Positions 2,426 to 64,000 of a stretch of DNA of 64,000 nucleotides are shown here, in pieces. The translations under genes were made by a program, and so were the position numbers. The stretch comes from an uncultured virus (IMG/VR IMGVR_UViG_3300049846_002026). Lineage: Duplodnaviria > Heunggongvirae > Uroviricota > Caudoviricetes. The first letter of the stretch is position 1; each line of letters opens with the position of its first letter. Below the pieces are notes generated by a model. That model was not told the origin of the DNA, did not search any database, and was given only the letters and a program-made list of their open reading frames with translations. The DNA lies in IMG/VR virus record IMGVR_UViG_3300049846_002026; one strand, given 5' to 3'.

Positions 2426-5400
2426 TTACATCTCCCGCACATCGAAGCTTCCACCACGCATACCAAGCTCCTTGCGCAGCGACTTCGCCACGGCATCTGC
2501 CAAAGCGTCAGGACTCTGCCGTGCTGTCCCATACACATTGATCGTAATGCCGCCGCCCGCTGCCACCCCACCCGGCCGATACGTCGGAACCGAGAAGTTG
2601 GCCGGCACATTCAACAGACGGGAGTCAAGGCGCAGGAGCTGCGTCTGGACCTCCATGACCTCCAGCTGTGTCGCGGTGTTCCGTTCGATCTTCTCCAGCG
2701 CTGCCATGGCCGGATCCTGCTTCGGCGTGCTCTTGCCGAACAGGCCGCCCACCAGGCCGCCCAGGAGGCCGCCTACCATGCCCCCGACCGGGCCCCAACT
2801 GGAACCGATGCCCATGCCGATGCTCGCACCTTCCGACGCGTAGCTCTCCTTGCCGCGGCCCTGAATCTGTCCGCCGAGCCAGGCACCGCCGTAGCTGCCA
2901 GCCATCTGCATGGCCGAGCCCAGCAGCTGCTGCTTCACACCCGCCCACTTCTGCGAGCTGGTGCCGAAGCCCAGGGGATTGAAGCCCGTGGTGCCAGTGA
3001 AGCTGGCGTTGGCCACATTGTTGATGTGGAACGGACTGGTCGGGTCGTTGCTCATCAGAAGCGACTGCCACGCTACGCCACCGCCCACATCTCCGATCGT
3101 CAGTCCGGTGTTCCCCATACCAGGAATCATCAACGGTGTTCTGTTCATCCGAGCCGCCTCGTTCTGCTCAAACGAATAGCGCAGGGTTTCCGTGCCCTGC
3201 ATGAAGCCGGTGATGATGGCTTCCTGCGTCAGATATGCGCCGTTCATGAACTCTGTACGCATACGATCACCAAACACACTCGCCGGCCCCACAAGGGAGT
3301 CAACGAAACGCTCAACCGCCACGTTCTGGAACGTGGCAGCTACGCCTTCCACCAGCTGCTTGCCCGGCTGGGCAGTCAGCGTACGGTAGTCCGCCAGCAC
3401 GGCCTTCAGGTTGCCGCCAAGTGCGTCGGTGAGTCCTTGCGCCTGACGGTTACGCTCTGTCGCCCGGCGGCCGTTCTCCGCGGCTACAATCCGCCGCTCC
3501 TCAAACGACAATGACGCTAGCTGAGAGTCGCGCTGTGTGATGATACCAGCCCCCTCACGGCCTACCGCAAAGCGCAGCGAGTCTCCGGTCAGGCCTTGGC
3601 GGGCCAGCCGTTCTTGCAGCCCTTCTAGTGCAATGTCTGCCGTCTGACGAATATCCTGCGCACGAAGCGCCACGGCGCTGAGCCGCGCGGCAGCCGACTC
3701 ATCCGGACGACGACGCGCATCATAGATCTGTTGGGCGATCTCGATCTGCTGCGTGCGCAGTCCGATATCGCCGCTAGCGCGAATAGTAGCCAGCTGTGTA
3801 CGCCGCTGAATGTCCGTGATATCCATGTCCCGCTTGAATACATCTGCGGCCTCTTCGCCGAACCGTGCGGCTGCCATGGCGATCTGTTGTGGGATAGTCT
3901 TACCCGTAGTCAACAGCTCGGTCCAAAACTTGTTGATGGCGGCCACTTGTTCAGCAGTAGACCCCTTGCCAGATAGCGCCTTCTCCATCAGATCGCGAAG
4001 ACCTGGGATGATACCACCGAACTCCTTCTCCAGGGCGGGGCTTACTTCTAGTGCCTTTTGCACATCGCCAAAGAACTGCGTGAACTGATATTGGTTAGCA
4101 ACCAGCGCGGCCCGCATCCGTCCTAGATTCTCGGAGTCTGGTGCCAGCTCACCGTCGCGCCCCACTCCAGAGCGCTCTGCCCGCGTTAGTGTTTCGTCGA
4201 GCGATGCGCCAATAGCGATCCCTTCGAACTGCGCACGAATCTCCTTGGGGGAGGCAAACCGCTCGGCTACTGCTACACGCAGCAGATCGTTGAGCAACGG
4301 CCCGCGCACTTGCGTTTCTAGCCGCGACAGATCTGTTACTAGGTTCTGGGTTGCAGCAGCCCGTGCTGTGAGGGGGTCATACTGCAAGCCGTAGCCCATC
4401 AACATCTGACTCGACGAGATCTCACTCTGCCGCTCGATGTAGCGCAGGTACGGTTGGAGGAACTGCGACCGCATGCGGAAGCTACCGCTGCCCAGTTCGG
4501 CCAGATCGGCCCGTGAGGACTCGCGATTACGCTGGTCCAGCAAACTGCGCGTTACACGGCCCAGTTCTTCCGCGGTCAAATCCGCGCCCTTGGCCGCCTT
4601 TGCCATAGCCTGCGCCAAGGCTTGCGCTTCCTTACCGATTCCGTTCAGCTCCGTGGCTGCAGCCTTGCCAGAATCGGCCAGTTCTGCGTTACCGTTCTGC
4701 CCGGGAAGTGTGATACCGGCTGTTTCCAGCGCAATACGCGCCATGTCGCGCACCAGCGCATCACGGTTGCCCAGCTGCTCGGCGGCGCCGCGAAGGCTTG
4801 GATCCCGTGCGAGAATGTCTTCTGTACGAAGCTGTGTGAACGCACCGAGACGATCGTACATGCCAGCGCCGACCGGCAAAGCACCCAGGCGCTCTTCGGC
4901 CATACGCAACCGCAACGATTCGAACCGCTCCACGTCACGCTGTGACGCGCCATACGCACTGGCTAGCGCACTGGCTACCGCCGTGCCAAAGCCGACTGTG
5001 CGATTCTGGCCGCGCTCTTCCACAAGCTGTTGCAGCGTCGTTGTCTGCCCGTTGATCTGCACCTGCCGGCGTCCGAAGGACGTGGCCCAGTTGGCAGAGC
5101 CCACCTGGAACAAATCATCAAGGGTACCGCTATACTGCTTGTTACGCCGATTCGCCAACCGCTGCTGAAGTTCATTGCTCGGCACAAGGGCATCGTACCA
5201 CCGCTTGACGCCCTTGTCGGTCAGCTCCGACGTCAGACGGCCGACGTCGAACGCTTCTGTCGAGTACTTGGAGAACGCGTCAGCAGCCGAACGGCTGTAC
5301 GCGTCGGTTTCGATACGTGCTCCGGCCATGACCAGACGCAGCGACTCGAACGCAGTATTGATCTGCTCGGTTTCTGTGCCAAGGTTCTCAAACGACGGAA

Positions 5401-8400
5401 TCGCATCTTGGAACACATCCAGAACCTGCTTGTTCACGAAGTCAGTGGCCGTCGTATTCACGTACCGGTTCGGATCAGACGAAGGCAGCAAGAACCGCTC
5501 ATAGGTTCCTTTACCGTACTTGTCGTCGAAGGTGTCACGAATACGGGCCAAGGCCTGCCTACTGAGGCTTTCGAGCTGTTCTGGGGAGGTACCCACGCGG
5601 CTAGACAGTTCGCTGATGCGGGTGGTGTACTCGTCCCGCTCCCGCGACGTGTCCTGTGCCCGCGTGCGCCACGACGACAAGCCCATGAACTCACTCTCGT
5701 TTGCCACATTCCAGGCATTGCGCATGCTCTGCAGTGCAGCAAACCCAACGAGGCCTGTTGCACCAAGGCCCAGGGCGCGGCTGCCCGCTCCGAAGAAGCG
5801 GCTGAGCATATCAGCACCCGGCGCGAGCGCACCAGCAGCATTGGGCACCAGCGCAGCTGCCGCTCGACCAGCCAGGTTGCGCGAACCCAGACCGACCAGA
5901 GCAGCAAGACCGGCCGTAAGCACGGCACCACCAGAGCCGCCCGCCCCTTCTGCCATGCTGCTCAGAAGCTTGGCCAGTTGGTTCAGACCGAATGTTACGC
6001 CCTTGATCGCACCGCTGGTATCCAGAGTGTTGCGGACCAAGGCGAAGAATGCCGTTTGCACCTGTGCCGCCCGTCCGGCCACAGAGTCGAGGGCCATCTC
6101 TGTACGGCGCTGTGTTTCGCCGAAGGCTTCCGACGACTCAGCAGAGATCTCCTTCACGCGATCGAAGTTTTCTAGCAGCGGCGCGATCACACCCGCCTGC
6201 CGCGCACCTGCGAAAGTCGTGAGCAGCTCCAGAGCCCGGACACTGTCCTGGTCCTTTCCGCTCGTACGCAACCGGTTGTACTCATTGGCCACGTCGCTGA
6301 AGATGTCCTGCAGCGGACGCAGCTGCTTCGGATCCGCGCCGCCCAGCTTGATGCCAAACCGATCCTGGAGGGCGTTCGCCGACTCTGGCTGCGCCAGTCG
6401 GCTGATCACGAAGCGCAGCGCGGTGGCCGCCTGGTTACCGCTGACACGAGTGCTCTCGATGATCTGCGTAGAGGCACCCATGACGGTGCCGAAGGCGTCC
6501 ACTCCGCCCAGCGACTCCGGCTGGAACTGTCGTGCCACCGCACCAGCACGCTGAATGCCCTGCGCTAGGTCCTGTGAGGTCACGGCGTAACGCGCTTCGA
6601 TGCGGCTGACACGATCGAGAATGTCCATCGGCTGCGTGTTTCCGCCGCTGATGGTACGAGCTGCAATCAGGAACTCAGATGCCTGGGAAGCATCAAACCC
6701 GGCACCCTGCTGTGCTGCCAGCGAGGCCCGTGTGAGGGTTTCGATTTCTGACGGATCGGCGCCGATCTGTGCGTAGATGCGCGCAGCCGACAGCGCCTCA
6801 GTCAAAGGAACGCCGTAATCGAGAGCCGACCGTGTGACCGAGCGGCCGATCTGATCGCGCTGTGCCGCTGAGCCCGTCTCCAGCACACCCTGAATCTTGC
6901 GCAGCTCTAGGTCGAACTGCACAACCTGTCGTGTCGTGGCGCGAAGCGCGTTGGCAAACGAATACACCACGCCACCAGCCATCGTGTACTCCGACAGCTG
7001 CATGACCTTACGAGCCAGGCCCTCGCCAAAGCCACTCCAGCCAGGTGGGCGCTGATTGCTACCAGTGACACGCTTGTCCAAGGATGCATCAAACGTCTTA
7101 CCCGCCGCTTCCGCCGCCTGGCGAACGTTGCGGATGACCTCTTCCATCTGCTTGAAGTCCTTGATCGGGACGCCCAGGTGCTTGCTCATGTCCTCCAGCA
7201 CTTGCTTTTCGACCTTGCCCAGGGTGGTCATGTCGGTCTTCAGCAGTGCGATGCTCTTGGCCAGGGCGTCAACCGCCTTGTTGGCTTGACCCGGCGTCTT
7301 TGCATTGAAGAGATTCGCCAACGCCCCCTGCGCGGCTTCGAGCTCCTTCTTGGCCGCCTCTTGGGTGACATCTGTTCCGCTGTTGCGAAACTTCTGGCTG
7401 GCTGCGCTAGCGAGCTCTAGTGCCTTTTGCGCCTCTGCGAGCTTTTCTTGTGCGTCGGCAGTACGCGCAGTAATGCCCAGACGGCCAGTTCCGCCCTCCT
7501 TGGAGCTACGCGCTTCAGCCTCTGCCAACTGCGCGCGTTCCAGTTCAGACTGCCGCTGCTGTACTCGTGCAAACGCTTCGTTCTCCTTCAAAATCGCCTT
7601 ATCAAACGACGTAGGCCCCGCAGTAGCTGCTACCTGAGCCTGCTTTACGCGCTCTTGTAGTGCTTTTGCCGCAGCGTACTTGGCTTCGTCTTCCGTCAAC
7701 GCGCCTTGCATCACACTACGCTGGCGCAGAAGCGCCTCCGCCATAGCCTCGCCGCGGCCTGCAGTAAGATACTGCTTGCCGAGTCCGACCATGCCGACCG
7801 CGCTCGTGTCACCGGTTGCGGCCAGTACCTGCGCCGCCTGCAACCGTGCAATCATGCGGTTCTGCAGACTGGTGTCGAAGGTGCGCGCCTGGCGCATCCG
7901 CTCTTCTGGATCCGCTGTATTTTCCGCCACCAGCATCGCCGAACTGGCACTACCGGTGGTGGTACGAATGCGGTTACGCAGCTTACGCAGATCCCCCAAC
8001 AACTCCTGTGGATTCTCCGCGTAGAACGCCGAGTCACGGTTGGTGGAGAGTCCTACATCCGGGAAGCCAGAACGGCTTTCGCGTGCCATGCGCTGCAGCT
8101 GGGCACGGACATCACGAGACTCGCGAACGTCGTAACGAGCGTTCGCGCGATCGATCTCTCCACGAGTCTTGGCATCTTGGCGCTCTGCTTCAGTGCGCAC
8201 CCGAGCGTCCGCCAACAAGTTGGCCTTGGTGACCTGGGCACGCTGATCGATCGGCAGTGAGGATAGGGCTGCCGACGCTGCTGTAGCTCCGGCGCCAAGC
8301 ACAGCCTTGCCTTCGGCCCAGTTCATGATTTGAACTGGAACAACACCACCGCCGCCAGACGGCATGCTTGCCAAGAAGTTGGCCGGACCGCCTGGTCCGC

Positions 8401-11400
8401 CACCGAAGCCACCACCACCTAGCGGGGCACCGAATAGGGTACGCATCGCCTGGAGGCTTGCTGCCGTTACCTGCGGATCGCCAGTTTGCGAGTTACCGCG
8501 ACGCGCTGGATCACCGTACCGCACGTCGATCGGTAGAACACTGCCGCCGGCCACGTCAAAGCCAGCACCGCGCAGCAGTTCACCGTACACACCAACCTGA
8601 CTCGTCCACGAAGACAAGCTCTTGCCTAGACGATTTCCGGTCCAAGCGTTACCAGCCAGGCTAGACTTTGCGTCGATGACCTGCACACGGCCGTTAGGAT
8701 CGATAGCAAACACGTCCGCCGTTCCGGTGACGCCGTACTTCTCGCCCTCCTTGGCACCGCGGGTAAGCCGTAGATCAGACTGTGACGCAAAGAGCGCGTA
8801 CCCTTGCTCTTCGAGTGACTGCTTCCAGCGGCCGGCATCAGACACATACGCCTGAAACGCCTGCTCGTCCTTGAAGGTGGTGCGACCGTGCATCCGCGGA
8901 TCGGTCGACTTCAGCAGGTACTCGTCCCACTTCTTGACCTTACCGGTCACCACATCGCGCAAAACTTCGTCCACCCCCGTGCCAACCACGGTGGCAGACG
9001 TGTCCTCCATCGGCTTGCGATTCCGTGGATCAGCAATATCCGTTTCGCCCTTCGCGTACGCCGTCGCGCGCAGGGTCTTCTCGCCAGTCACCTTGTTGAT
9101 GTAGTGCGAGCCATCAGGCGCCAGCTCCAGGGCGGAGTTAGCTACCGCCATCGCCTCCATGCGCCGAATCGTAGCAGCCTGCGCCGGGGTTAGACCGCGG
9201 TTAGGGCCGCTGAACGCCGTCATCTGCACGTCCGCGGGCATAATGCCAGCCAGCATCGCGGCCTCCGCACCGCCACTGTCGACCATGCGTGCTTCAGCCG
9301 CAGTCAGCAGCAGCTGCCGACCACCTACATTACGGCCCAGGCGGGCGAGCTTCTCGTCGTTGGGCCCGAGGAATGCTCCGCCCTGTTCTAGCTCCTTGGA
9401 CGCTTCGCTGATCTGGCGCTCAAGGGTGTCCAGGGTGGACCGGTACGCCATCGGGTCCATCTGCGAGGCGCGACGTGACGGCTTGAGCTCGCCACTGTTA
9501 ATCGCCCGCACATAGTCCATCACAATGCGCGGATCGGTTTGGGTCGGATCCAGGCGTGCGTCTGGTGCGGCCGAGGCGGAGCCAAGGCCGAAGGCTACTT
9601 CATCTGGGAGCTCACCTTGCACCAGCTGCTGTCGCAGTAGCATGCGCGACTGCATCCAGGCTTCCATCGCGTTGCGCCGCGCGGCCGACTGTGCCAGAAA
9701 CTGCAGATTGCCCGGGCTCTGCATGCCAGGTGTGTTGAGCGGGCTCAGGAACAAGCGGCTCTCGTAGTCTTCGCGGCTTCCTGGTTCAGTGAAGTTCCGC
9801 TGTCCGTTGTCCAGCTCTGAGCGGGTCAGCAAATCCAAGTTACGGGCGCCACGAAGCTCGCGGTACGCTGCCACAAACGGTCCGCGGCCGGTCGTATCAT
9901 TCGCAAAGAATGGAGCGAGATCCGGATCCTTCAGCATCTGTTGTACGAGCGGGTGGTCGGTGCCCTGCAAGGAGCGACCAGCCCGGAACAAGCGCGCCAG
10001 CACAGTGCCCAGGGCGGGCGGAATGACCGTGCCCTCAGACTCTGCAGCGATGGCTAGCTGCCGATTAGGTGAGTCTGGGCCTGGGAAGTATGAACGCCGC
10101 AGCTGATCTTCGATCTGCTTTGCACGTGCCTCAGGATCTGTCTTTGGCTTTTCGATCTCCAGGTTCGTGCTATTCTTGAAGCTTTGCCACCGGGCCAGCT
10201 GCTCCTTGAACTGCAGTTCCATCGCCGTTTCGGCGAAAGTCGGGGCGGCTTCGTTGGCGAAGATCACGTCCCGATACTTGCTCACCAGATTCTGGAACAT
10301 CTGCGCAGGATTGGTGCGCAGCGTCCGACGCGGCAAAAACTGATTGCCCGTCCGATATACCGCACCGATAGTGTCGTTGCGTACAAAGCCGCTGTCATCC
10401 TCGGCATTCACCGCTTCGGCAGCCATCGCCATGAGGCTGCTACGATTCGCCATGCGGGCTTCTGCACGCGCCGCATGCGCCGGGCTAATCGCCCGCGCGA
10501 CCGCAGCCGCACGAGCCGCCCCAGCGTCTGAGAGGGGTTCTCCGCGGAAGTCGTTCGCGTCGATATCCGGCGTAACGTTACGGCCACCTCCCGCCGGAGG
10601 TGCCGCACGCAATCCTTCCAGAACGGCACGAGCAATCGTACGCCCCATCTCAGCCCAGGCTTCCTTGTCGGTTCCCTTGGTCGAAGGAGACGTACCCAGG
10701 GGGACACCGCTAAACCCGGACGTGTTGTGCCGCAGCCGAGTGTTCGCATCCAGGAGGTGCTTGACCATGTTCTCGATCTGGTCACCAAATGCCTGGAACC
10801 GCTGCTCGTACCGCCGCTTCGACGACTCATTCTCGATCTGGGTAGCGCCTAGCGTGCTGCCCTCACGCTGCATGAGCTGCTTGAGCATGTCACGCACTGT
10901 GCTGGCGGTCGTCTTGTCCGCCGATGCCTTGACGGCCTCCTCCACGAACTTCTTGAGGGTGTTGATTTCCGTATGCGGGTTCCGACGTTCCGCCGCCTGC
11001 GCGCCCGTCAGTGCGGTGCGCAGACCTTGCAACGCCTCTTGGATCTTGACTTCTGAACGACCCGCACGATCGGAAGCAGGCACACGACGGCTTTCCTCAG
11101 CCGATGGCGCACCACCTGGAGCCAAGGCGCGCAACACCTTGAGGATCTCCTGACCCGTCTTCTCGGTCATGCCGCCGGCTTCAGCCGTACCGGTAGCCAT
11201 GTCCTGGAAGTTCTTGTACGTCGACGTCTTGCCGCCGATCTTCATGTTCGCCAGCTCTTGCAGTTTGGCGCGCAGGTCCTTCTTCAGGTCTGCGAGCACA
11301 TCGTCGCTGACCTTGATCTTGAACTCGCCGCCTTCCTTCAGCAACTGCTGCAGCGCCAAGAGCTCGTTGCGTACTTCAACGAGCTGCTTGGTGCCTTCTG

Positions 11401-11437
11401 CTGTAAGGGTTACTGCATAGCGTAGGCTATTGTCCAT
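2426..11437 (-). CDS. Tail tape measure protein with large N-terminal extension containing a PD-(D/E)XK nuclease domain
   Basis: 3003 aa, Ala/Leu/Gln-rich helical; TP901-type TMP core around aa 1470-1800 (DLAQGIQRAG, SGNQAATALRFVISRL, FAGARQAG); Gly-rich hydrophobic C-terminus; nuclease motifs GTADV...VIDAKS...QVGVY around aa 900-950. Confidence 0.9.
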   Translation of the reverse strand: MDNSLRYAVTLTAEGTKQLVEVRNELLALQQLLKEGGEFKIKVSDDVLADLKKDLRAKLQELANMKIGGKTSTYKNFQDMATGTAEAGGMTEKTGQEILKVLRALAPGGAPSAEESRRVPASDRAGRSEVKIQEALQGLRTALTGAQAAERRNPHTEINTLKKFVEEAVKASADKTTASTVRDMLKQLMQREGSTLGATQIENESSKRRYEQRFQAFGDQIENMVKHLLDANTRLRHNTSGFSGVPLGTSPSTKGTDKEAWAEMGRTIARAVLEGLRAAPPAGGGRNVTPDIDANDFRGEPLSDAGAARAAAVARAISPAHAARAEARMANRSSLMAMAAEAVNAEDDSGFVRNDTIGAVYRTGNQFLPRRTLRTNPAQMFQNLVSKYRDVIFANEAAPTFAETAMELQFKEQLARWQSFKNSTNLEIEKPKTDPEARAKQIEDQLRRSYFPGPDSPNRQLAIAAESEGTVIPPALGTVLARLFRAGRSLQGTDHPLVQQMLKDPDLAPFFANDTTGRGPFVAAYRELRGARNLDLLTRSELDNGQRNFTEPGSREDYESRLFLSPLNTPGMQSPGNLQFLAQSAARRNAMEAWMQSRMLLRQQLVQGELPDEVAFGLGSASAAPDARLDPTQTDPRIVMDYVRAINSGELKPSRRASQMDPMAYRSTLDTLERQISEASKELEQGGAFLGPNDEKLARLGRNVGGRQLLLTAAEARMVDSGGAEAAMLAGIMPADVQMTAFSGPNRGLTPAQAATIRRMEAMAVANSALELAPDGSHYINKVTGEKTLRATAYAKGETDIADPRNRKPMEDTSATVVGTGVDEVLRDVVTGKVKKWDEYLLKSTDPRMHGRTTFKDEQAFQAYVSDAGRWKQSLEEQGYALFASQSDLRLTRGAKEGEKYGVTGTADVFAIDPNGRVQVIDAKSSLAGNAWTGNRLGKSLSSWTSQVGVYGELLRGAGFDVAGGSVLPIDVRYGDPARRGNSQTGDPQVTAASLQAMRTLFGAPLGGGGFGGGPGGPANFLASMPSGGGGVVPVQIMNWAEGKAVLGAGATAASAALSSLPIDQRAQVTKANLLADARVRTEAERQDAKTRGEIDRANARYDVRESRDVRAQLQRMARESRSGFPDVGLSTNRDSAFYAENPQELLGDLRKLRNRIRTTTGSASSAMLVAENTADPEERMRQARTFDTSLQNRMIARLQAAQVLAATGDTSAVGMVGLGKQYLTAGRGEAMAEALLRQRSVMQGALTEDEAKYAAAKALQERVKQAQVAATAGPTSFDKAILKENEAFARVQQRQSELERAQLAEAEARSSKEGGTGRLGITARTADAQEKLAEAQKALELASAASQKFRNSGTDVTQEAAKKELEAAQGALANLFNAKTPGQANKAVDALAKSIALLKTDMTTLGKVEKQVLEDMSKHLGVPIKDFKQMEEVIRNVRQAAEAAGKTFDASLDKRVTGSNQRPPGWSGFGEGLARKVMQLSEYTMAGGVVYSFANALRATTRQVVQFDLELRKIQGVLETGSAAQRDQIGRSVTRSALDYGVPLTEALSAARIYAQIGADPSEIETLTRASLAAQQGAGFDASQASEFLIAARTISGGNTQPMDILDRVSRIEARYAVTSQDLAQGIQRAGAVARQFQPESLGGVDAFGTVMGASTQIIESTRVSGNQAATALRFVISRLAQPESANALQDRFGIKLGGADPKQLRPLQDIFSDVANEYNRLRTSGKDQDSVRALELLTTFAGARQAGVIAPLLENFDRVKEISAESSEAFGETQRRTEMALDSVAGRAAQVQTAFFALVRNTLDTSGAIKGVTFGLNQLAKLLSSMAEGAGGSGGAVLTAGLAALVGLGSRNLAGRAAAALVPNAAGALAPGADMLSRFFGAGSRALGLGATGLVGFAALQSMRNAWNVANESEFMGLSSWRTRAQDTSRERDEYTTRISELSSRVGTSPEQLESLSRQALARIRDTFDDKYGKGTYERFLLPSSDPNRYVNTTATDFVNKQVLDVFQDAIPSFENLGTETEQINTAFESLRLVMAGARIETDAYSRSAADAFSKYSTEAFDVGRLTSELTDKGVKRWYDALVPSNELQQRLANRRNKQYSGTLDDLFQVGSANWATSFGRRQVQINGQTTTLQQLVEERGQNRTVGFGTAVASALASAYGASQRDVERFESLRLRMAEERLGALPVGAGMYDRLGAFTQLRTEDILARDPSLRGAAEQLGNRDALVRDMARIALETAGITLPGQNGNAELADSGKAAATELNGIGKEAQALAQAMAKAAKGADLTAEELGRVTRSLLDQRNRESSRADLAELGSGSFRMRSQFLQPYLRYIERQSEISSSQMLMGYGLQYDPLTARAAATQNLVTDLSRLETQVRGPLLNDLLRVAVAERFASPKEIRAQFEGIAIGASLDETLTRAERSGVGRDGELAPDSENLGRMRAALVANQYQFTQFFGDVQKALEVSPALEKEFGGIIPGLRDLMEKALSGKGSTAEQVAAINKFWTELLTTGKTIPQQIAMAAARFGEEAADVFKRDMDITDIQRRTQLATIRASGDIGLRTQQIEIAQQIYDARRRPDESAAARLSAVALRAQDIRQTADIALEGLQERLARQGLTGDSLRFAVGREGAGIITQRDSQLASLSFEERRIVAAENGRRATERNRQAQGLTDALGGNLKAVLADYRTLTAQPGKQLVEGVAATFQNVAVERFVDSLVGPASVFGDRMRTEFMNGAYLTQEAIITGFMQGTETLRYSFEQNEAARMNRTPLMIPGMGNTGLTIGDVGGGVAWQSLLMSNDPTSPFHINNVANASFTGTTGFNPLGFGTSSQKWAGVKQQLLGSAMQMAGSYGGAWLGGQIQGRGKESYASEGASIGMGIGSSWGPVGGMVGGLLGGLVGGLFGKSTPKQDPAMAALEKIERNTATQLEVMEVQTQLLRLDSRLLNVPANFSVPTYRPGGVAAGGGITINVYGTARQSPDALADAVAKSLRKELGMRGGSFDVREM

Positions 11438-28400: not shown

Positions 28401-28787
28401 TTACCTCAAGTCGTCCCAGCTCTTGTGTTCGCTCTCTTCGAGGCGAATGCGATTGCGGATGATCCGCTTATTGTGCGTCAGCATGAAGTTCCCGTCCATG
28501 TCCTTGGCCAGCTGGCGCCCACTTTGCAGATGGGTGTCCAGGGATTCGTGCAGGACGATCTTGCTTCGGCGTAGGAAGTCGACGATGCGAAACTTGACCG
28601 CCTGCCGCACAAAGGCACTCTCGTTGGACCGCACGGTGGCGATGTCGCACCGAAAGAGCGCCAGCAGTCCTTCCTGGAGGAGATCCTCGAAAAGGTCGTT
28701 ATCCGTCTTGGCGTACTTGCGCGCGATGTTGCGGATGTCTTCCAGGTACCGCGGGTAATACACCTCGTTGAACTCCTTTTCGGTCAT
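28401..28787 (-). CDS. Stand-alone sigma70 region-2 protein (half of a split sigma factor)
   Basis: IRNIARKY...EDLLQEGLLAL...AFVRQAVKFRIVDFLRR; own GGAGG RBS; no region 4 before stop. Confidence 0.85.
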   Translation of the reverse strand: MTEKEFNEVYYPRYLEDIRNIARKYAKTDNDLFEDLLQEGLLALFRCDIATVRSNESAFVRQAVKFRIVDFLRRSKIVLHESLDTHLQSGRQLAKDMDGNFMLTHNKRIIRNRIRLEESEHKSWDDLR

Positions 28788-31275: not shown

Positions 31276-31554
31276 TTAATCTAACACCTTGTACGTGATT
31301 CCGCAAGCCTGACAAGTCAGTTCTGGGCGGATTTTGGAAACACTGTCGACTGGGGGCACAACGTAGGTCACATCGTGACTGAGGCAGTGCAAGCAGACAC
31401 TGGCATTCGCGTAAACCCGGATCAACTGGTCCACGCTGACGCTCTTGTCGCTCCACCAGCGAACGAGGAACTGTTGCCAGCCCCCGTCTACTCGTTGCCA
31501 CGCGTATGCCGTTTTGACAACTACGCAGCTCTTTTTGCGCTTGTGTGTCTTCAT
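31276..31554 (-). CDS. Zn-ribbon protein
   Basis: CLHC...CQAC; ATGA overlap with polymerase stop. Confidence 0.65.
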   Translation of the reverse strand: MKTHKRKKSCVVVKTAYAWQRVDGGWQQFLVRWWSDKSVSVDQLIRVYANASVCLHCLSHDVTYVVPPVDSVSKIRPELTCQACGITYKVLD

Positions 31555-33833
31555 TTCAGGGCCTTGGTCCAATATGGGACAACTCCTGTCGAACTTTCCG
31601 GGAACTCCGCGACCACTGGGACGTCTGGGCAGTACGCCCGACCCGCCCGCTCCATGCACTCTTTCAGCAGATCCGCCACGTCCTGGGCGATGTCGTTGCG
31701 TGCCTCACACAGGATTTCGTCGTGGATGATGTTCCCAATCCACGTCAGATCCTGCCAGCCACGCGCATCGACCTCACGCTGCCACAGGCATGCGGCTGCC
31801 TTGATCATGGAAGCCGAACCGCCCTGAATGGGCGCATTGGCCGCTTCGGTGTAGGTGTTGTTCGCGTCCGGCCGGAAGGTGCGAATGCGGCCGCAAGGGG
31901 CCCGCACGAATGTCACATGGTCCTGCAGGTAGTCGTCCCAAAACCGGAAGGCTTCCTTGTTCTCTGGGTCTGCCCCGTTAGAGCAGCGGTCCTGGAACGC
32001 CTTCACCTTCTCGTGGACCTCGAAAAAGCGACGATGCATCTCAGCCGCGTAGTCCATCGTCGGCGGTACCGCCTCACCCTTGAAGATGGCGTCCGCCAGG
32101 CCCAGGGTCAGCTGGTCCCGGAGCTTCGGGATGCCAGACCGATAGGCCATGGCCAGCACGATCGCCTTGAACACCTGTCGCTCCAGGTTGCCCTCCGGCG
32201 TCTTCTTATCCGGCCGGTGGCCCACCATGGCCTCGGCCACGGCCACGTACAGATCGTCCTTGTTCCGGTAGGTGCTCAGATAAGTCGGATCCTGGGACAC
32301 CTGTGCAAGCAACCGCGGCTCCTGCTGAGAGTAGTCCGCAATCACGAAGCTGTAGCCGGGGCCCGGCACAAAGCACTTACGGTACCGCGGGTCCGAAGGA
32401 ATGTTCTGGAGGTTCGGCTGAGTCGACGTACGACCGGTCGTGGTGATCGCCTGATGCACACTAGTGTGAATCCGCTTGGTCTCCCGACGGACGTTCTTGT
32501 TCAGCCATTCGATCCCGAACGCCGTCACCTGCTGATCGTACTTCGAGTAATCCATCAGCAGGGTAACCAGGTTCCGCGGTAGTTGGCCACGGGCGGACCG
32601 GATCGTCAGCGCCTTCTTGTCCGCCTCGACAAGCAAGCAGTAGCGATCCTCGGGCAGCACAGAGTCCGGGGCGTCTTCCGCCTCGACCTCAATCCCCTTG
32701 GACTTCTTGTAGCCGGCCCACTCCTTGCCCCAGGCCTTCTTCGCCTTTTTGACCGCAGGCCAGGTCAGGAGCAACTCATACGGCCACTTGATGCTCTTGC
32801 AGTACGCATTGATGGCCCATTTGACCTGCACTGAGCTGGAGTAGTTGAGCGGCTTGTTCTTGACCGGGTAGATCGGACGCGCCTTGCTGCGATCGGTGTC
32901 GAACAGATCGTGCTGATACGTCAGATCCCGCAACAGATCGTCCAGTGCCCGTTCGGTCTCTGCCCGCTTCTGCACGGCTTCCTGCCAGAGCGCCCTCCAA
33001 GCCCCCGCATCCAGCCGAATGCCCTTGTGCTCCATCTCATGGATGATGGGCAGCGTTTCCATCTCCAGCTTGATGATCTCCCGCAGGCCGCGCTCGGCAA
33101 TGATCGGCTTTTGGGCAGCCGCGATCAGAAAGGGGTACACCACATCCAGCGAGGCGTATGCCAGCTGGACCGGCGTGTGCTTGCCCGCGGGGGTGCTGTA
33201 GAACGAGGTCCGAACATCGGTCTCCTTCTTGATCACCACCTGGTAGTACCGCAGCATGAGGGCCTTCATGGACGTCAGCCGGTAGGCCGCACGACTGGCG
33301 CCGTCATCCGCCTCGTTCTTCTTGCCGTCGTCCAACACACCCGCCCGAAGCACGAGCTCGGCAAGCTGGCAGTCTGCCACCCCACGAAGCCGCACGTTGA
33401 GCATGCGCAGGAACCGGTACTCGAATCCGAGGTTCTGACCCAGCTTGACGACCTTCTTGTTCTCGCAGAGGTCCCAGAGCCACTTCAGTTCCTGAAACGT
33501 GAAACAGCGAATGTCGAGCACCCACACATCCACACCAGAGGGATGGTCCAACACACCCAGCTGCACCGTGGCGATCTTGTCAAGCCACGGGCTAAGGCCG
33601 GAAGTTTCAAGGTCGAGCGCAACCACCTTAGCGGTCTTCAGCCATTCCTGAATCTCCCAGAGCCCGGCCTTGGTCGTGCAGTAGCCGATGGTCACATGCC
33701 GAATCACTCCCTTCGCCACCTCTACTGGCGTACGGTAGAGCGGCGACAGTGTATCCGTCTTTTCGCGAACTGTTTCGAAACTGAGCGTATCAGTTTCTGG
33801 CAGTTCAAGCGTCAGCACATTCTTAGAAGCCAC
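31551..33833 (-). CDS. polA: Family A DNA polymerase with 3'-5' exonuclease
   Basis: DLETS, GQNLGFE, YASLD exo motifs; TTGRTS..PNLQNIP, DYSQQEPR, RQVFKAIVLAMAY, NAPIQG, IHDE. Confidence 0.95.
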   Translation of the reverse strand: MASKNVLTLELPETDTLSFETVREKTDTLSPLYRTPVEVAKGVIRHVTIGYCTTKAGLWEIQEWLKTAKVVALDLETSGLSPWLDKIATVQLGVLDHPSGVDVWVLDIRCFTFQELKWLWDLCENKKVVKLGQNLGFEYRFLRMLNVRLRGVADCQLAELVLRAGVLDDGKKNEADDGASRAAYRLTSMKALMLRYYQVVIKKETDVRTSFYSTPAGKHTPVQLAYASLDVVYPFLIAAAQKPIIAERGLREIIKLEMETLPIIHEMEHKGIRLDAGAWRALWQEAVQKRAETERALDDLLRDLTYQHDLFDTDRSKARPIYPVKNKPLNYSSSVQVKWAINAYCKSIKWPYELLLTWPAVKKAKKAWGKEWAGYKKSKGIEVEAEDAPDSVLPEDRYCLLVEADKKALTIRSARGQLPRNLVTLLMDYSKYDQQVTAFGIEWLNKNVRRETKRIHTSVHQAITTTGRTSTQPNLQNIPSDPRYRKCFVPGPGYSFVIADYSQQEPRLLAQVSQDPTYLSTYRNKDDLYVAVAEAMVGHRPDKKTPEGNLERQVFKAIVLAMAYRSGIPKLRDQLTLGLADAIFKGEAVPPTMDYAAEMHRRFFEVHEKVKAFQDRCSNGADPENKEAFRFWDDYLQDHVTFVRAPCGRIRTFRPDANNTYTEAANAPIQGGSASMIKAAACLWQREVDARGWQDLTWIGNIIHDEILCEARNDIAQDVADLLKECMERAGRAYCPDVPVVAEFPESSTGVVPYWTKALK

Positions 33834-52722: not shown

Positions 52723-54189
52723 ATGACGATGGAGAACTTCACCAAGAACATCACGGCTGAGTACATCCTGGAGGCAGAGCCCTTCCGGATGATCCTTCGG
52801 CCGGCTGATCCGAAGAAGTACGTCGATATCGACGACGATCTTCGGGTGCGGCGTCTTCCGCGGTTGACTCCGCTGGAGATTGATTACGCACGGCCCCTGA
52901 GCTGGATCAGCGCAGGGCATCACAAGAGCGGCCGGGAGCGGCATCTGCCCGCGCTCAATCACACGGTGCATCAGTACCTCATCGCCCAGGAGGGGAAGGT
53001 GCCGACTGCGTGGTGTGGGCCGGATGACAGCCGCAGACTCTGTGAGCTGCTGGGTCCAGGGTTCCCGAAGCGGTGGAAGGTGGCCATGCGCTACGCGTTC
53101 GAACAGCCCATGCACGAGATGCTGGGTAGCCGCGTGGTGCGCAACACCTGCCTCCACTGGCCCCGTGGTGTGATGGACTATGACTCGCTCATGTTCCTGG
53201 TCAAGCATCGCACCAAGCTGCAGCAGATCGTGCAGGACGGCTACGGGCACTTCATCCCACTGATCCAGCAGTACTGGGTCTGGGCACTGGCCGAAGACCA
53301 GCCACTCCAAGCGATCCGCGCCACCCTGGGCAAGGGCGTGTGGAAGACGCTCTGTGCCCAGCGGCCTTCTCGTGTGGTGCAGTTGGCGCGAGTGGCCCAA
53401 CAGGGGTGGCACCCGAACGCCTACGTCCACTACCGCGCACGCCAGGACACCCAGGCGCAGGCCCAGTGGATCAGAGACATCCTGGCACCGGCGCTGCACC
53501 TGCCGACCACCCTGCTGCTGAACAAGAACATCTCGGCACTCCGGGCGGCGGAGGTGGGCTACCTGGCCAATCTCGCCAGGCGCAAGCCATGGCCGTACGC
53601 CGCGGATGGCGTGAAGTACATCCGCACCGCCCAGCTGTGGGAATACCTGCACCGTGAGCTTGGTGCTGCGGTGGGTATGGACTGGAGCCCGCGGCGCGTG
53701 GAGGAAGAGCATCGGGTGCTGGTGGAACGGCGCCACGCAGAGCATATGCGCCGGATGCTGGAGCGCAAGGCTCTGGTCGGCAAGCCGTTCAACCCGCCCA
53801 GCTGGGTGCCACTGGGACTCACGCATCGCGACAGTCGGCTCACGGCACGGCTGCTGACCAGCGCGGAGGCCTATGTCGAGCAGGGCCAGAACCAAGGCCA
53901 CTGCGTTGGCAGCTACGCGGAAGGTGGTGCGATGAACAAGTACTTCGTGTACTCGATCGAAGAAGCAGACACCCCAGAGGACAACAGGCTGGGTGCGATC
54001 TGCAGCACGGTGATGTACAACGAGAACGGCGGCATGGTCCAACACTACGGCAAGTACAACGCCATCGTGACGGACCCTGCTGTGATCGCGCTGTTCAACG
54101 AGCTCAGCACAATGATGAAGAAGCAGGCACCCCAGCGCGAGCTGGCCACCGCCGGATGGAATCCGGCAGATGACGACGAAGCATTCTAA
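52723..54189 (+). CDS. PcfJ-like domain protein
   Basis: LTSAEAYVEQGQNQGHCVGSY and QHYGKYN motifs. Confidence 0.75.
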   Translation: MTMENFTKNITAEYILEAEPFRMILRPADPKKYVDIDDDLRVRRLPRLTPLEIDYARPLSWISAGHHKSGRERHLPALNHTVHQYLIAQEGKVPTAWCGPDDSRRLCELLGPGFPKRWKVAMRYAFEQPMHEMLGSRVVRNTCLHWPRGVMDYDSLMFLVKHRTKLQQIVQDGYGHFIPLIQQYWVWALAEDQPLQAIRATLGKGVWKTLCAQRPSRVVQLARVAQQGWHPNAYVHYRARQDTQAQAQWIRDILAPALHLPTTLLLNKNISALRAAEVGYLANLARRKPWPYAADGVKYIRTAQLWEYLHRELGAAVGMDWSPRRVEEEHRVLVERRHAEHMRRMLERKALVGKPFNPPSWVPLGLTHRDSRLTARLLTSAEAYVEQGQNQGHCVGSYAEGGAMNKYFVYSIEEADTPEDNRLGAICSTVMYNENGGMVQHYGKYNAIVTDPAVIALFNELSTMMKKQAPQRELATAGWNPADDDEAF

Positions 54190-61276: not shown

Positions 61277-61605
61277 CGAAGTTCGATCTTGCCTGGGCCA
61301 TCGACCGGATGCGCAAGCGTACCGCTCGATTGATGCCCAACGCACCGCTGTGCGGCTCGGACGGAAAGCCACTGGACGTAGGCAGTGCCAATGATCCGGT
61401 CACCAAGGGCGATCTGGATCTCATCCTGGAACATGCCGAGCGGTTGATCATGCCGACGTCCCGTGTGCAAAGCACCCCGGAGAAGCTGAAGCTGGAAGTC
61501 GTCCAGCTATCGGATGGCGCCAACGGCCTGGGACTGTTCGTGGTCATCGACAAGGAAGTTGCCAGGCAGATCTTCAGCCTGGGGACCAGCTATGGCAACG
61601 GCTAA
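61273..61605 (+). CDS. Hypothetical protein
   Basis: ATGA overlap. Confidence 0.6.
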   Translation: MTKFDLAWAIDRMRKRTARLMPNAPLCGSDGKPLDVGSANDPVTKGDLDLILEHAERLIMPTSRVQSTPEKLKLEVVQLSDGANGLGLFVVIDKEVARQIFSLGTSYGNG

Positions 61606-61831
61606 GCAGCCTGAGGACACCATGCTCCTGGGACTCGGAGTCCTGTGTGGTGTCGCCATGACTATTACGCTCATCGGATGGATCGCTGCCGTCCAACGCA
61701 AGGCGGAGCTCAAGGCACAGGAGCGCGTGGTGTGTGAACTGCACGCAGGCTACCAGGAAACGGAAGCCGACACCGTGGCCCTCATCAAGTCCATGCCCAA
61801 CTGCGCCGTGGTGTTCTATGAGCAACGCTAG
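61592..61831 (+). CDS. Membrane-anchored hypothetical protein
   Basis: One TM segment. Confidence 0.55.
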   Translation: MATAKQPEDTMLLGLGVLCGVAMTITLIGWIAAVQRKAELKAQERVVCELHAGYQETEADTVALIKSMPNCAVVFYEQR

Positions 61832-62198
61832 CGAAGAGCTCAAGAAGGCCATCGCGGATGCGGAGAAGTACCTGCTGACTTGCGATTACGTCGGCAAGAT
61901 CGAGAAGGCAGCAGTGTTGCATCGCCTGATCCAGGCAGTACGCAACCATGCTACCGAGCAAGCTCGTCAGCCGCGTACTTGCATTGCAGAGCGTGTGGCA
62001 GCTGTGCAACGTCTGGAGTGCCCGCATGTGCCCACCCTGGACATGCTGTACACGGAGCAGTTGGACGAGCTGGACCGGCTCGAACTGGTGATGGCGCTGG
62101 AAACCGAGTTTCGTGTGGAGATTCCGGACGACATCGCAGCTGCCTGGACGTGCGGCAATGACGCCGCCACGTACATCAACACCATCCTTCCGCCCTGA
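61818..62198 (+). CDS. Acyl carrier protein-like domain lacking the phosphopantetheine Ser, with N-terminal extension
   Basis: LDELDRLELVMALETEFRVEIPDD..A...T..DA..YI aligns to ACP DSLDxVELVMALEEEF..EIPDE. Confidence 0.8.
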   Translation: MSNASEELKKAIADAEKYLLTCDYVGKIEKAAVLHRLIQAVRNHATEQARQPRTCIAERVAAVQRLECPHVPTLDMLYTEQLDELDRLELVMALETEFRVEIPDDIAAAWTCGNDAATYINTILPP

Positions 62199-62205
62199 GG
62201 GGCCC

Positions 62206-62778
62206 ATGGCTGACTTCGTACAGTTCCTCATCAATATGTTCGTGATCTGGGTGTTCATCAGCACCGCCGCGCGCCAGGTCATGGAAGTGCGCATGTTCAC
62301 CGAAGTGACCAAGACCCCGATCGATCGTGGGTATGTCTGGTTCCTGCGTTTGACCTGTGCGTTCGCCTGCATCGGCATGCTCGCCATGATCCATTCGTTC
62401 CGACACGAACGGTACGAACAGGTGTTCAATTTCGGATTCAGTGCGCTCCCCATGTTGTTCATCACCGCGGGCAATGCGCATCGGATCCACCAACTGAAGA
62501 CCATGACCGCGCTGTTCGACTATCTGGAAGTCCCCATCCAGGTATACGGCGCCCTGGCCTGGTTCAATGAGTTCGGCACGCGGCAAGGCAAGGTCTGGCT
62601 CGAACGTGCGGACACCGACCACAACAATCAACCGCTCAAGGAACCGCAGTGGTTCTGTGGTGGGCCAGGGTTCGCCGGCAACCACACGAGTGGGGGCAAC
62701 GCACTGAGCGCCATCCTGGCTGCGAAGACCATCGACGACATGCTGAACCAACCTCCCAAGGCCCCGGAGGCCTCATGA
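62206..62778 (+). CDS. Multi-TM membrane protein
   Basis: Three hydrophobic segments; GAGGGG RBS. Confidence 0.65.
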   Translation: MADFVQFLINMFVIWVFISTAARQVMEVRMFTEVTKTPIDRGYVWFLRLTCAFACIGMLAMIHSFRHERYEQVFNFGFSALPMLFITAGNAHRIHQLKTMTALFDYLEVPIQVYGALAWFNEFGTRQGKVWLERADTDHNNQPLKEPQWFCGGPGFAGNHTSGGNALSAILAAKTIDDMLNQPPKAPEAS

Positions 62779-63125
62779 GCACCGCCATGGCAATCTACCT
62801 GATCCTGGGTGTACTGACGAGCTACCTGCTCGAACGGTACATGCCGGAGCTCTTCCAGCCACGGATGGTCAAGAGGCCGTTCCACACGGGACAGGTCGTT
62901 GGAGTCATCCTGCTCTGGTGGATGGTCGCCATGCTGGTTGGTACGCTCTGGGTGATCCAGCGGGTGCTGCGGCGTACGGACGAACCACCCCCTGTGGCCA
63001 AGGCGCCGAAGCTCGAAGCAGTGGCCAAGGCGCACATGCAGATCGTGCCCACGTATGATCCCATCCGACATCCGCATCGAGACGCACAGCCGATGCGTAT
63101 GACCGGCGATCACACAGGTCCTTGA
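62775..63125 (+). CDS. Two-TM membrane protein
   Basis: GGAGG RBS, ATGA overlap. Confidence 0.65.
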   Translation: MSTAMAIYLILGVLTSYLLERYMPELFQPRMVKRPFHTGQVVGVILLWWMVAMLVGTLWVIQRVLRRTDEPPPVAKAPKLEAVAKAHMQIVPTYDPIRHPHRDAQPMRMTGDHTGP

Positions 63126-64000
63126 TGCTCACCATCCACAATGTGCGACTGGGGCATGCCAATAACTCCAGCTCTTCGCATTCTATCCTGTTGCTGCCCC
63201 CTGGGCAGATCGCAGCAGACCTGCTACAGGATGATCTGCCCGAAGAGTATGGGTTCGGCTGGAGCGAGTTCATCGTTGCCAGTCCCAAAGGCAAGATGTT
63301 CTATCTTGTCGGCATGTTCTACTACAAGCTGGTCAAGGCAGTTGGCGCAAAGTACGCCTACTTGATCTTGAACAGCCTGTTCAATCTGGAAGAACATGGC
63401 GTGACCGAGAAGATGTTCTTGAACGAGGACAAGTTCAGTCCCTACGTGGATCATCAGTCGGCCATCACCATCCCCAGCGAGTTCAAGAATCCGGAAATGC
63501 CGAACCTGGACTTCATCGCAGAACTACACGCCTGGCTGCAACATGAGCGCGTGTATATCCAGGGCGGCAACGACAATGAAGACAAGCCAGAGCCACCGTT
63601 GTCAGGTACGGAGCTGTTGCATCCACTACGGGACTACGCCGGCTTTGGCGAAGTCGTGGCACGTAAAGACCCGCAGGGGTTCTGGACGGTGTACAACAAG
63701 CGCACTGGTGCCAAGCTGCGGTTCAGCTTCGGTGCACCACAGTCGGACGCTACCAAGTCCAGCGTGCCTGAACTGATCGACCTGAAGATCACGAACAAGT
63801 GCCCATTCGGTTGTGCCTATTGCTACCAGGAATCCACGTCAACTGGTGCAACAGCAGCCGAGGGCAAGCCGTTCCTCGTGCATCAGATCTTGACCCAACT
63901 CGCACAGATGGAAGTGTTCGAGGTCGCCATCGGTGGGGGTGAGCCCACCTTGGATGCGCAGTTTCCTAACATCCTCGAAACGCTGAGTGAAAAGGGTGTG
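63125..64000 (+). CDS. Radical SAM protein with N-terminal NSSS-motif domain, truncated by window edge (not in track)
   Basis: Hand translation: RLGHANNSSSSHS...FGW...YVDHQS...GGNDN, then in frame DLKITNKCPFGCAYC and EVAIGGGEPT. Confidence 0.85.
   Translation, partial: MLTIHNVRLGHANNSSSSHSILLLPPGQIAADLLQDDLPEEYGFGWSEFIVASPKGKMFYLVGMFYYKLVKAVGAKYAYLILNSLFNLEEHGVTEKMFLNEDKFSPYVDHQSAITIPSEFKNPEMPNLDFIAELHAWLQHERVYIQGGNDNEDKPEPPLSGTELLHPLRDYAGFGEVVARKDPQGFWTVYNKRTGAKLRFSFGAPQSDATKSSVPELIDLKITNKCPFGCAYCYQESTSTGATAAEGKPFLVHQILTQLAQMEVFEVAIGGGEPTLDAQFPNILETLSEKGV

Follow-up and report, generated by a model that had tools for sequence, protein, structure and literature searches.

A two-domain phage protein with the fold of acyl carrier proteins and glutamate at the phosphopantetheine-attachment site

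A close known counterpart of the protein analyzed here is the acyl carrier protein (ACP) of E. coli, AcpP (PDB 1L0I/1L0H; PF00550), with Ser36 of its D-S-L motif at the phosphopantetheine-attachment site. Mitochondrial complex I and the NFS1-ISD11 complex also contain ACP as a structural component, and the known structural ACP subunits bind through the acyl-phosphopantetheine arm. The mitochondrial ACP of Plasmodium has Phe at the Ser site and is reported to bind the Isd11-Nfs1 complex. A harmful unloaded ACP has a precedent in the growth inhibition by apo-ACP that Keating, Carey and Cronan reportedly observed in 1995.

Two kinds of phage proteins are also relevant. A conserved family of Ackermannviridae proteins labelled 'acyl carrier protein' (phiMAM1 MAM_092, Maynard_88, Menlow_107) has D-E-L in place of D-S-L, and the g156 protein of Yersinia phage fHe-Yen9-03 (138 aa) combines a helical N-terminal extension with an ACP domain. 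No papers describing Ser-less phage ACPs were found in full-text literature searches. In a 2026 preprint (10.64898/2026.03.01.708874) a contact between a phage ACP and the host FabZ is predicted. According to another study (mBio 2026, PMC13343975) the interaction of E. coli ACP with IscS requires D35, D38 and Ser36, and the S36T variant loses binding.

The protein P0001 is encoded within 64,000 nucleotides of an uncultured virus (IMG/VR record IMGVR_UViG_3300049846_002026); this whole analyzed stretch is referred to as the window. The P0001 ORF (61818..62198, + strand) begins with ATG and encodes 126 aa followed by a stop codon. The ATG is situated 14 nt within the upstream ORF (61592..61831, +), encoding a protein of 79 aa with one hydrophobic segment and no family match, and the gap between the P0001 stop codon and the start of the next gene is 8 nt. 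The products of the two downstream ORFs (62206..63125, +), of 190 aa and 116 aa, contain hydrophobic segments and likewise have no family match. An in-frame GTG at position 61734 would extend P0001 by 28 Pro/Ser/Thr-rich residues, but since its use would mean a 98 nt overlap with the upstream gene, ATG at 61818 is the likelier start. The GC content by codon position (0.65/0.40/0.72) is similar to that of the adjoining genes and therefore fits a real coding frame. No promoter-like sites and no + strand terminator-like sites were found between 58 and 64 kb, which, together with the overlapping or tight gene spacing, agrees with transcription of these small genes as a single long unit.

The ACP homology postulated in the earlier note was borne out by sequence and by structure comparisons. 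The phmmer search against all PDB chains returned 134 distinct sequences at E<=10 (best E 8.1e-6); the best 60 of these 134 were all acyl carrier proteins, and ACP subunits from structures of complex I and of NFS1-ISD11 complexes were among the matches. Residues 79-121 of P0001 were aligned to residues 30-74 of E. coli AcpP with E 1.5e-5 and with helix II ungapped, and PHROG 5934 'acyl carrier protein' matched P0001 with E 6.5e-9. The AF2 model based on a 25-row alignment (pLDDT 87.7, pTM 0.60) comprised two long helices followed by four ACP helices. When this model was compared with the PDB using Foldseek, the top matches were ACPs only (TM by target 0.74-0.82, rmsd ~2 Å), with 39-42 % identity to E. 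coli AcpP, and the Atlas structure search gave TM of 0.77-0.83 to ACP clusters. The resemblance to ACP helix II, noticed previously for the C-terminal half of the protein, was thus upheld and at the same time widened, since the whole four-helix ACP fold is present in residues 54-124. The domain as delimited by homology and the AF2 model spans residues 54-126 (61977..62195, +) with helices at 56-67, 84-98, 104-109 and 113-123. A prediction of a two-copy P0001 complex (score 0.14, mark 0.42) spoke neither for nor against a homodimer.

The four-helix fold of AcpP, its acidic helix II and its EF-x-x-EIPD-D loop all recur in P0001. The ACP domain of P0001 has a pI of 4.05 and a net charge of -10.5, and both its size and its pI are similar to those of the bacterial type II AcpP. 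In the phmmer alignment the acidic residues D83, D86, E89, E95 and E97 of helix II correspond to D35, D38, E41, E47 and E49 of AcpP. According to the alignments most of the pocket-lining positions are also retained. The position of AcpP Ile62, a residue which we take to line the acyl pocket, is occupied by Trp110, and we infer that this side chain would fill the pocket of P0001. Compared with AcpP, P0001 has in addition Glu84 in place of Ser36, a 53-aa hairpin in front of the ACP domain, and no report by the Pfam PP-binding model PF00550, even at E<=10, for either the whole protein or residues 54-126 alone. Other Glu-bearing (DEL-type) look-alikes, unlike P0001, pass this Pfam model.

Glu84 is encoded by GAG (62067..62069, +), and the alignments place it at the position of the phosphopantetheine-attachment Ser, so that D-S-L is changed into D-E-L. 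The region of residues 82-105 reads LDELDRLELVMALETEFRVEIPDD and contains the motif DELDRLEL. The replacement of Ser by Glu claimed in the earlier note was confirmed by phmmer, in which E84 was aligned on AcpP Ser36, and direct reading of the sequence also bore out that GAG is at least two base changes away from every Ser codon (TCN, AGY). In the 25-sequence alignment the attachment-Ser column contained 20 Ser, three Glu and two Ala residues. With Glu at this site, P0001 should not undergo phosphopantetheinylation at the canonical position and should not carry acyl groups, as far as its sequence tells.

In the AF2 model helix II begins with E84. Glu and Asp are good residues for a helix N-terminus (helix capping), therefore the choice of Glu need not be a matter of phosphate mimicry. 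Glu84 may imitate the charge of Ser-phosphate or may be a plain keeper of the helix cap, and the data do not discriminate between these two roles.

It would be conceivable that P0001 still acts as a carrier, with the modification placed on a different residue or made by an atypical transferase. Nothing beyond the intact fold speaks for such a carrier, the start of helix II has no Ser nearby (YTEQLDELDRLEL) and the window did not yield any PPTase family, so it is considered hardly credible. More broadly, PPTase, Fab enzyme and acyltransferase families were absent from the ORFs of the 64-kb window of the 135,610-bp contig (27 on the + strand, and 45 in the PHROGs or 42 in the Pfam search on the - strand), and a local profile search, with P0001 itself included in the profile, revealed no second ACP-like ORF in the window. 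A carrier role would therefore have no visible enzymatic partner there. P0001 differs from AcpP also in being encoded by a phage, in a window where no gene for fatty-acid synthesis was detected.

The helical domain of about 50 aa, supposed earlier to be fused in front of the ACP part, was found in the AF2 model as a two-helix hairpin of residues 3-49 (H3-21, H24-49) within the N-terminal domain of residues 1-53 (61818..61976, +). It is mildly basic, with a pI of 8.9. No relatives of the hairpin were detectable in the HMMER and Pfam searches, the latter of which gave only a sub-threshold hit to E1_4HB (0.028-0.057). The HMMER matches of the hairpin to P0003 (523 aa, six stretches) and P0013 (2561 aa) were judged spurious, as these are repetitive proteins with scattered sub-threshold Pfam hits. 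The hairpin also showed no sequence similarity to the extension of g156 from Yersinia phage fHe-Yen9-03, and the extended ACPs of this type, unlike P0001, keep D-S-L. The Ackermannviridae proteins (90-113 aa) are longer than AcpP as well, but their extra length is located inside or before helix I and forms no separate hairpin.

No orthologue of P0001 was found in any collection searched. The tblastn search of INPHARED (GenBank phages) with P0001 gave no match at E<=1e-3, and the word search of 5.8 billion clusters returned only P0001 itself and one ordinary ACP. This word search located P0001 on two contigs, the longer being the one of 135,610 bp. Among 1.84 billion representatives HMMER detected 62 proteins at E<=1e-3, comprising P0001 and 61 others, mostly of the ACP type, and only P0001 itself scored below 1e-10. 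IMG/VR contained no orthologue either. The 43 loci from JGI metagenomes, caught through the VMALETEF word, were all of the ordinary AcpP type with the attachment Ser (41 DSL, one VSL and one ESL).

The best-scoring ACP domains gave a mixed answer as to whether the relatives of P0001 keep Ser, which the earlier note, if all close homologues did so and the allele showed relaxed selection, had regarded as grounds for abandoning its idea. P0005, 47 % identical to P0001 over 68 aa, retains Ser, whereas P0006, 49 % identical over 53 aa, and its 69 % homologue P0065 both bear Glu. Among proteins with Glu, the metagenomic P0006 and P0065 (79 and 109 aa) come closest to the P0001 ACP domain and have in common with it W-T-C after helix III, but they lack the N-terminal hairpin. 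The only viral relative found for P0065 (L097) has DSL.

The search for phage ACP homologues with a residue other than Ser at the attachment site, proposed in the earlier note, was productive, as DEL was found in several phage lineages. It occurs in four Ackermannviridae genera, represented by Serratia phage phiMAM1, Salmonella phage Maynard, Klebsiella phage Menlow and Erwinia phage Bue1; these genes were reached via weak tblastn matches, after which the motif was read. The motif of phiMAM1, DELDRIEL, is close to DELDRLEL of P0001, although the identity of the two proteins is only 31 % over 78 aa. The Ackermannviridae look-alikes form a conserved family, in contrast to the singleton P0001. 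In Erwinia phage vB_EamM-Bue1 (MG973030.1) the D-E-L look-alike ORF (L103 197-559) lies in a stretch without a GenBank-annotated gene. With a DEL-specific DNA pattern, two genomes of Serratia Ackermannviridae were detected, as well as a gene for 92 aa on a viral contig of 199 kb with high GC (L100). The IMG/VR scan, biased to the EFxIEIPD motif, returned 52 loci, and DEL was present at three of the 50 with a readable motif (L007, L016 and L019). The Ser motif D-S-L was read in Erythrobacter phage R6L and Yersinia phage fHe-Yen9-03.

In the set of 121 unique ACP-like domains, the attachment-Ser column contained 104 Ser, 11 Glu, three Ala and one each of Asp, Pro and Thr; five of the 121 rows had been collected on account of their Glu, and without them Glu accounts for six of the 12 non-Ser residues among 116 domains. 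The tree of these 121 domains, built on 77 columns, left 69 of 118 inner branches unresolved and resolved neither way the specific kinship between P0001 and the Ackermannviridae proteins. The P0001 ACP domain was placed on a long branch of 2.12 changes per column. In the AU test a single Glu clade was not rejected (p 0.586), a result which does not show one clade either.

The collected sequences also included ACP domains in other arrangements. P0004 (335 aa) and P0011 (300 aa) contain three tandem ACP domains after a signal- or lipoprotein-like N-terminus; repeats 1 and 2 have Ser, whereas the residue of repeat 3 is Glu (P0004) or Asp (P0011). Three IMG/VR loci (L002 4732-6435, L006 4294-6816 and L027 5587-6945) encode Ser-type ACP domains inside phage proteins of 567, 840 and 452 aa, respectively, and these fused ACP architectures share a further conserved region with a G-L-H motif. 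On a 148-kb IMG/VR contig (L045 5673-6135) two tandem ACP-like genes directly follow a Metallophos and SMC_N (SbcCD-like) pair, the second of them with G-S-L-D in place of D-S-L-D. On T4-like IMG/VR contigs (L042, L052 and relatives) a gene for an ACP of 71-81 aa, with DSLN for DSLD, is situated between the genes of a neck protein and the gp15 tail-sheath stabiliser.

The genes adjoining phage ACP genes were compared for the two types of motif. At L007 the DEL gene is flanked by a Toprim primase-like ORF on one side and SNF2/DnaB helicases on the other, with a gp32-like gene nearby; at L019 it lies between genes for a VapE-like primase-helicase and a PD-(D/E)XK nuclease, and at L016 an MT-A70 methylase is close by. 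For 23 phage ACP genes of the Ser type, 91 neighbours were examined; they included RecT, exonucleases, SbcCD-like proteins, RusA, DnaJ/ClpB, RtcB and T4 neck/tail genes, and none of these 91 ORFs belonged to the Fab, PKS or PPTase families at E<=1e-5. This shows that, as a rule, genes for phage ACPs do not form part of lipid pathways. The replication neighbourhood of L007 and L019 was rejected as a clue to the function of the Glu type, since Ser-type phage ACPs adjoin similar genes. The same comparison bears on the view of P0001 as a general acidic mimic, in which the ACP fold would be a mere scaffold and the target would lie outside ACP biology, e.g. a nucleic-acid-binding or defence protein. 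The pI of the ACP domain, the location of P0001 in a block of small phage genes without family, and the presence of two of the three DEL-type IMG/VR genes (L007, L019) inside replication/recombination modules are in line with a mimic of this kind. However, Ser-type phage ACPs occur likewise beside RecT, exonucleases, SbcCD-like genes and RusA, and P0001 itself lies outside the replication module of the window (29-49 kb), and we regard such a role as quite improbable.

A similar balance had to be drawn for the assumption that P0001 is a decaying or neutral relic, i.e. a former phage ACP gene which has lost its Ser and drifts without function. Its singleton status, its long branch and its failure with the Pfam PP-binding model would all be expected of a relic, and Ser-type phage ACP genes, which are common, have a role that is itself not clear, with no Fab, PKS or PPTase gene among their 91 neighbours. 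On the other hand the frame is intact and the codon-position GC resembles that of the neighbouring genes, the AF2 model is confident for both domains, the acidic residues of helix II and most pocket positions are kept, and the Ser-to-Glu change is maintained elsewhere, in the four Ackermannviridae genera and in P0006 and P0065. Decay of the gene is therefore an improbable explanation, if a little less so than a general acidic mimic.

The phage origin assumed in the earlier note was confirmed by the gene set of the window, which is that of a novel tailed phage and includes genes for a portal, a DNA polymerase, a primase-helicase, a RuvC-like resolvase, an exonuclease, an amidase and a tape-measure-like protein. 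The last of these is a 3003-aa ORF (window 2426-11437, -), whose residues 1242-1874 match tape-measure PHROGs with E 1e-30; its unusual length implies a very long tail. The DNA polymerase (window 31551-33833, -) has its best GenBank phage match in Pseudanabaena phage PA-SR01 (137 kb), and as the identity is only 26 %, the phage is far from anything cultured. Megablast of the 52-64 kb region against INPHARED gave no match. A 128-aa protein encoded between the structural and the replication genes (window 28401-28787, -) matches sigma-70 region 2 with E 5e-7 and is possibly a phage sigma factor.

The 27 ORFs of the + strand block to which P0001 belongs (49.7-64 kb) are nearly all without a family. 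One of the two assigned genes of the block encodes a 488-aa protein with a PcfJ-like domain (window 52723-54189, +; E 1.5e-9). The other encodes a radical SAM protein (window 63122-64000, +; cut by the window end) and is located ~0.9 kb downstream of P0001. The cluster motif CPFGCAYCY of this protein is found around residue 226, and the preceding ~200 residues have no family match.

This neighbourhood raises the question whether P0001 serves a phage-encoded complex as an adaptor or a structural component, in which the ACP fold would be used as a small acidic binding module with no competition with host ACP. The radical SAM enzyme or the small membrane proteins next to P0001 would be the candidate partners. 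Such an arrangement is suggested by the tight co-directional block, with its start overlap upstream, 8 nt gap downstream and no promoter-like or + strand terminator-like sites found at 58-64 kb, by the family-less N-terminal region of the radical SAM protein, by the complex I and NFS1-ISD11 ACP subunits among the PDB matches, and by the extra N-terminal hairpin, which could be a dedicated interface. The neighbourhood by itself is nevertheless weak evidence, the small membrane-protein neighbours have no family match, and no radical SAM or similar membrane-protein neighbours were present at the other DEL-type loci examined. P0001 also lacks the acyl-phosphopantetheine arm through which the known structural ACP subunits bind. 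Overall, an adaptor of this type is unlikely, though it should be taken more seriously than a relic.

The explanation that we prefer, still at somewhat less than even confidence, is that P0001 is a non-carrier pseudo-ACP which acts through protein binding, most likely as a non-loadable competitor at the sites where host proteins dock ACP. It is supported by the ACP fold and homology combined with Glu in the Ser column and the kept acidity of helix II, and by the recurrence of the acidic replacement in several phage lineages. The lack of orthologues, the long branch and the unreported Pfam PP-binding domain were counted against it. According to this proposal P0001 would be made from the long polycistronic block of small phage genes and would act purely through protein binding, occupying the ACP-docking site of at least one host ACP client and, being always unloaded, competing there with host ACP. 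The carboxylate of Glu84 would either take the place of the Ser-phosphate or serve to cap the helix, and the basic hairpin could be a second contact surface. The decoy suggested in the earlier note, titrating ACP partners or ACP-dependent toxins, would likewise be a plausible role.

The proposed pseudo-ACP resembles the Ser-less ACP of Plasmodium in that the ACP fold is kept for binding after loss of the cofactor site, but the latter protein is eukaryotic and organellar and has a hydrophobic replacement, in contrast to the acidic one in P0001. Binding need not extend to every partner: the loss of ACP-IscS binding in the S36T variant (PMC13343975) speaks against a general decoy, since it means that some clients need the modified Ser, so a Ser-less mimic may not bind them.

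As a singleton, P0001 is a poor experimental entry point. The label 'acyl carrier protein', given as a matter of routine to the gene of the well-studied Ackermannviridae, is misleading. P0001 is a new two-domain form of a recurrent and apparently unpublished theme of Ser-less phage ACPs, and the same acidic replacement in several unrelated-looking phages suggests a real, unrecognised function. A bolder generalization, which we consider unlikely but worth stating, is that the Glu-for-Ser ACP look-alikes constitute a widespread class of proteins for host takeover by phages that has not been described before. With a carboxylate replacing Ser-phosphate on the ACP docking helix, they would jam or rewire host ACP client hubs (e.g. 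lipid synthesis or other ACP-binding regulators), and P0001 would be the two-domain version, in which the basic hairpin directs the mimic to a particular target. ACP is among the most connected proteins of the bacterial cell, and a copy of its docking face that can never be loaded would offer a simple means of interfering with lipid synthesis or other ACP-dependent processes.
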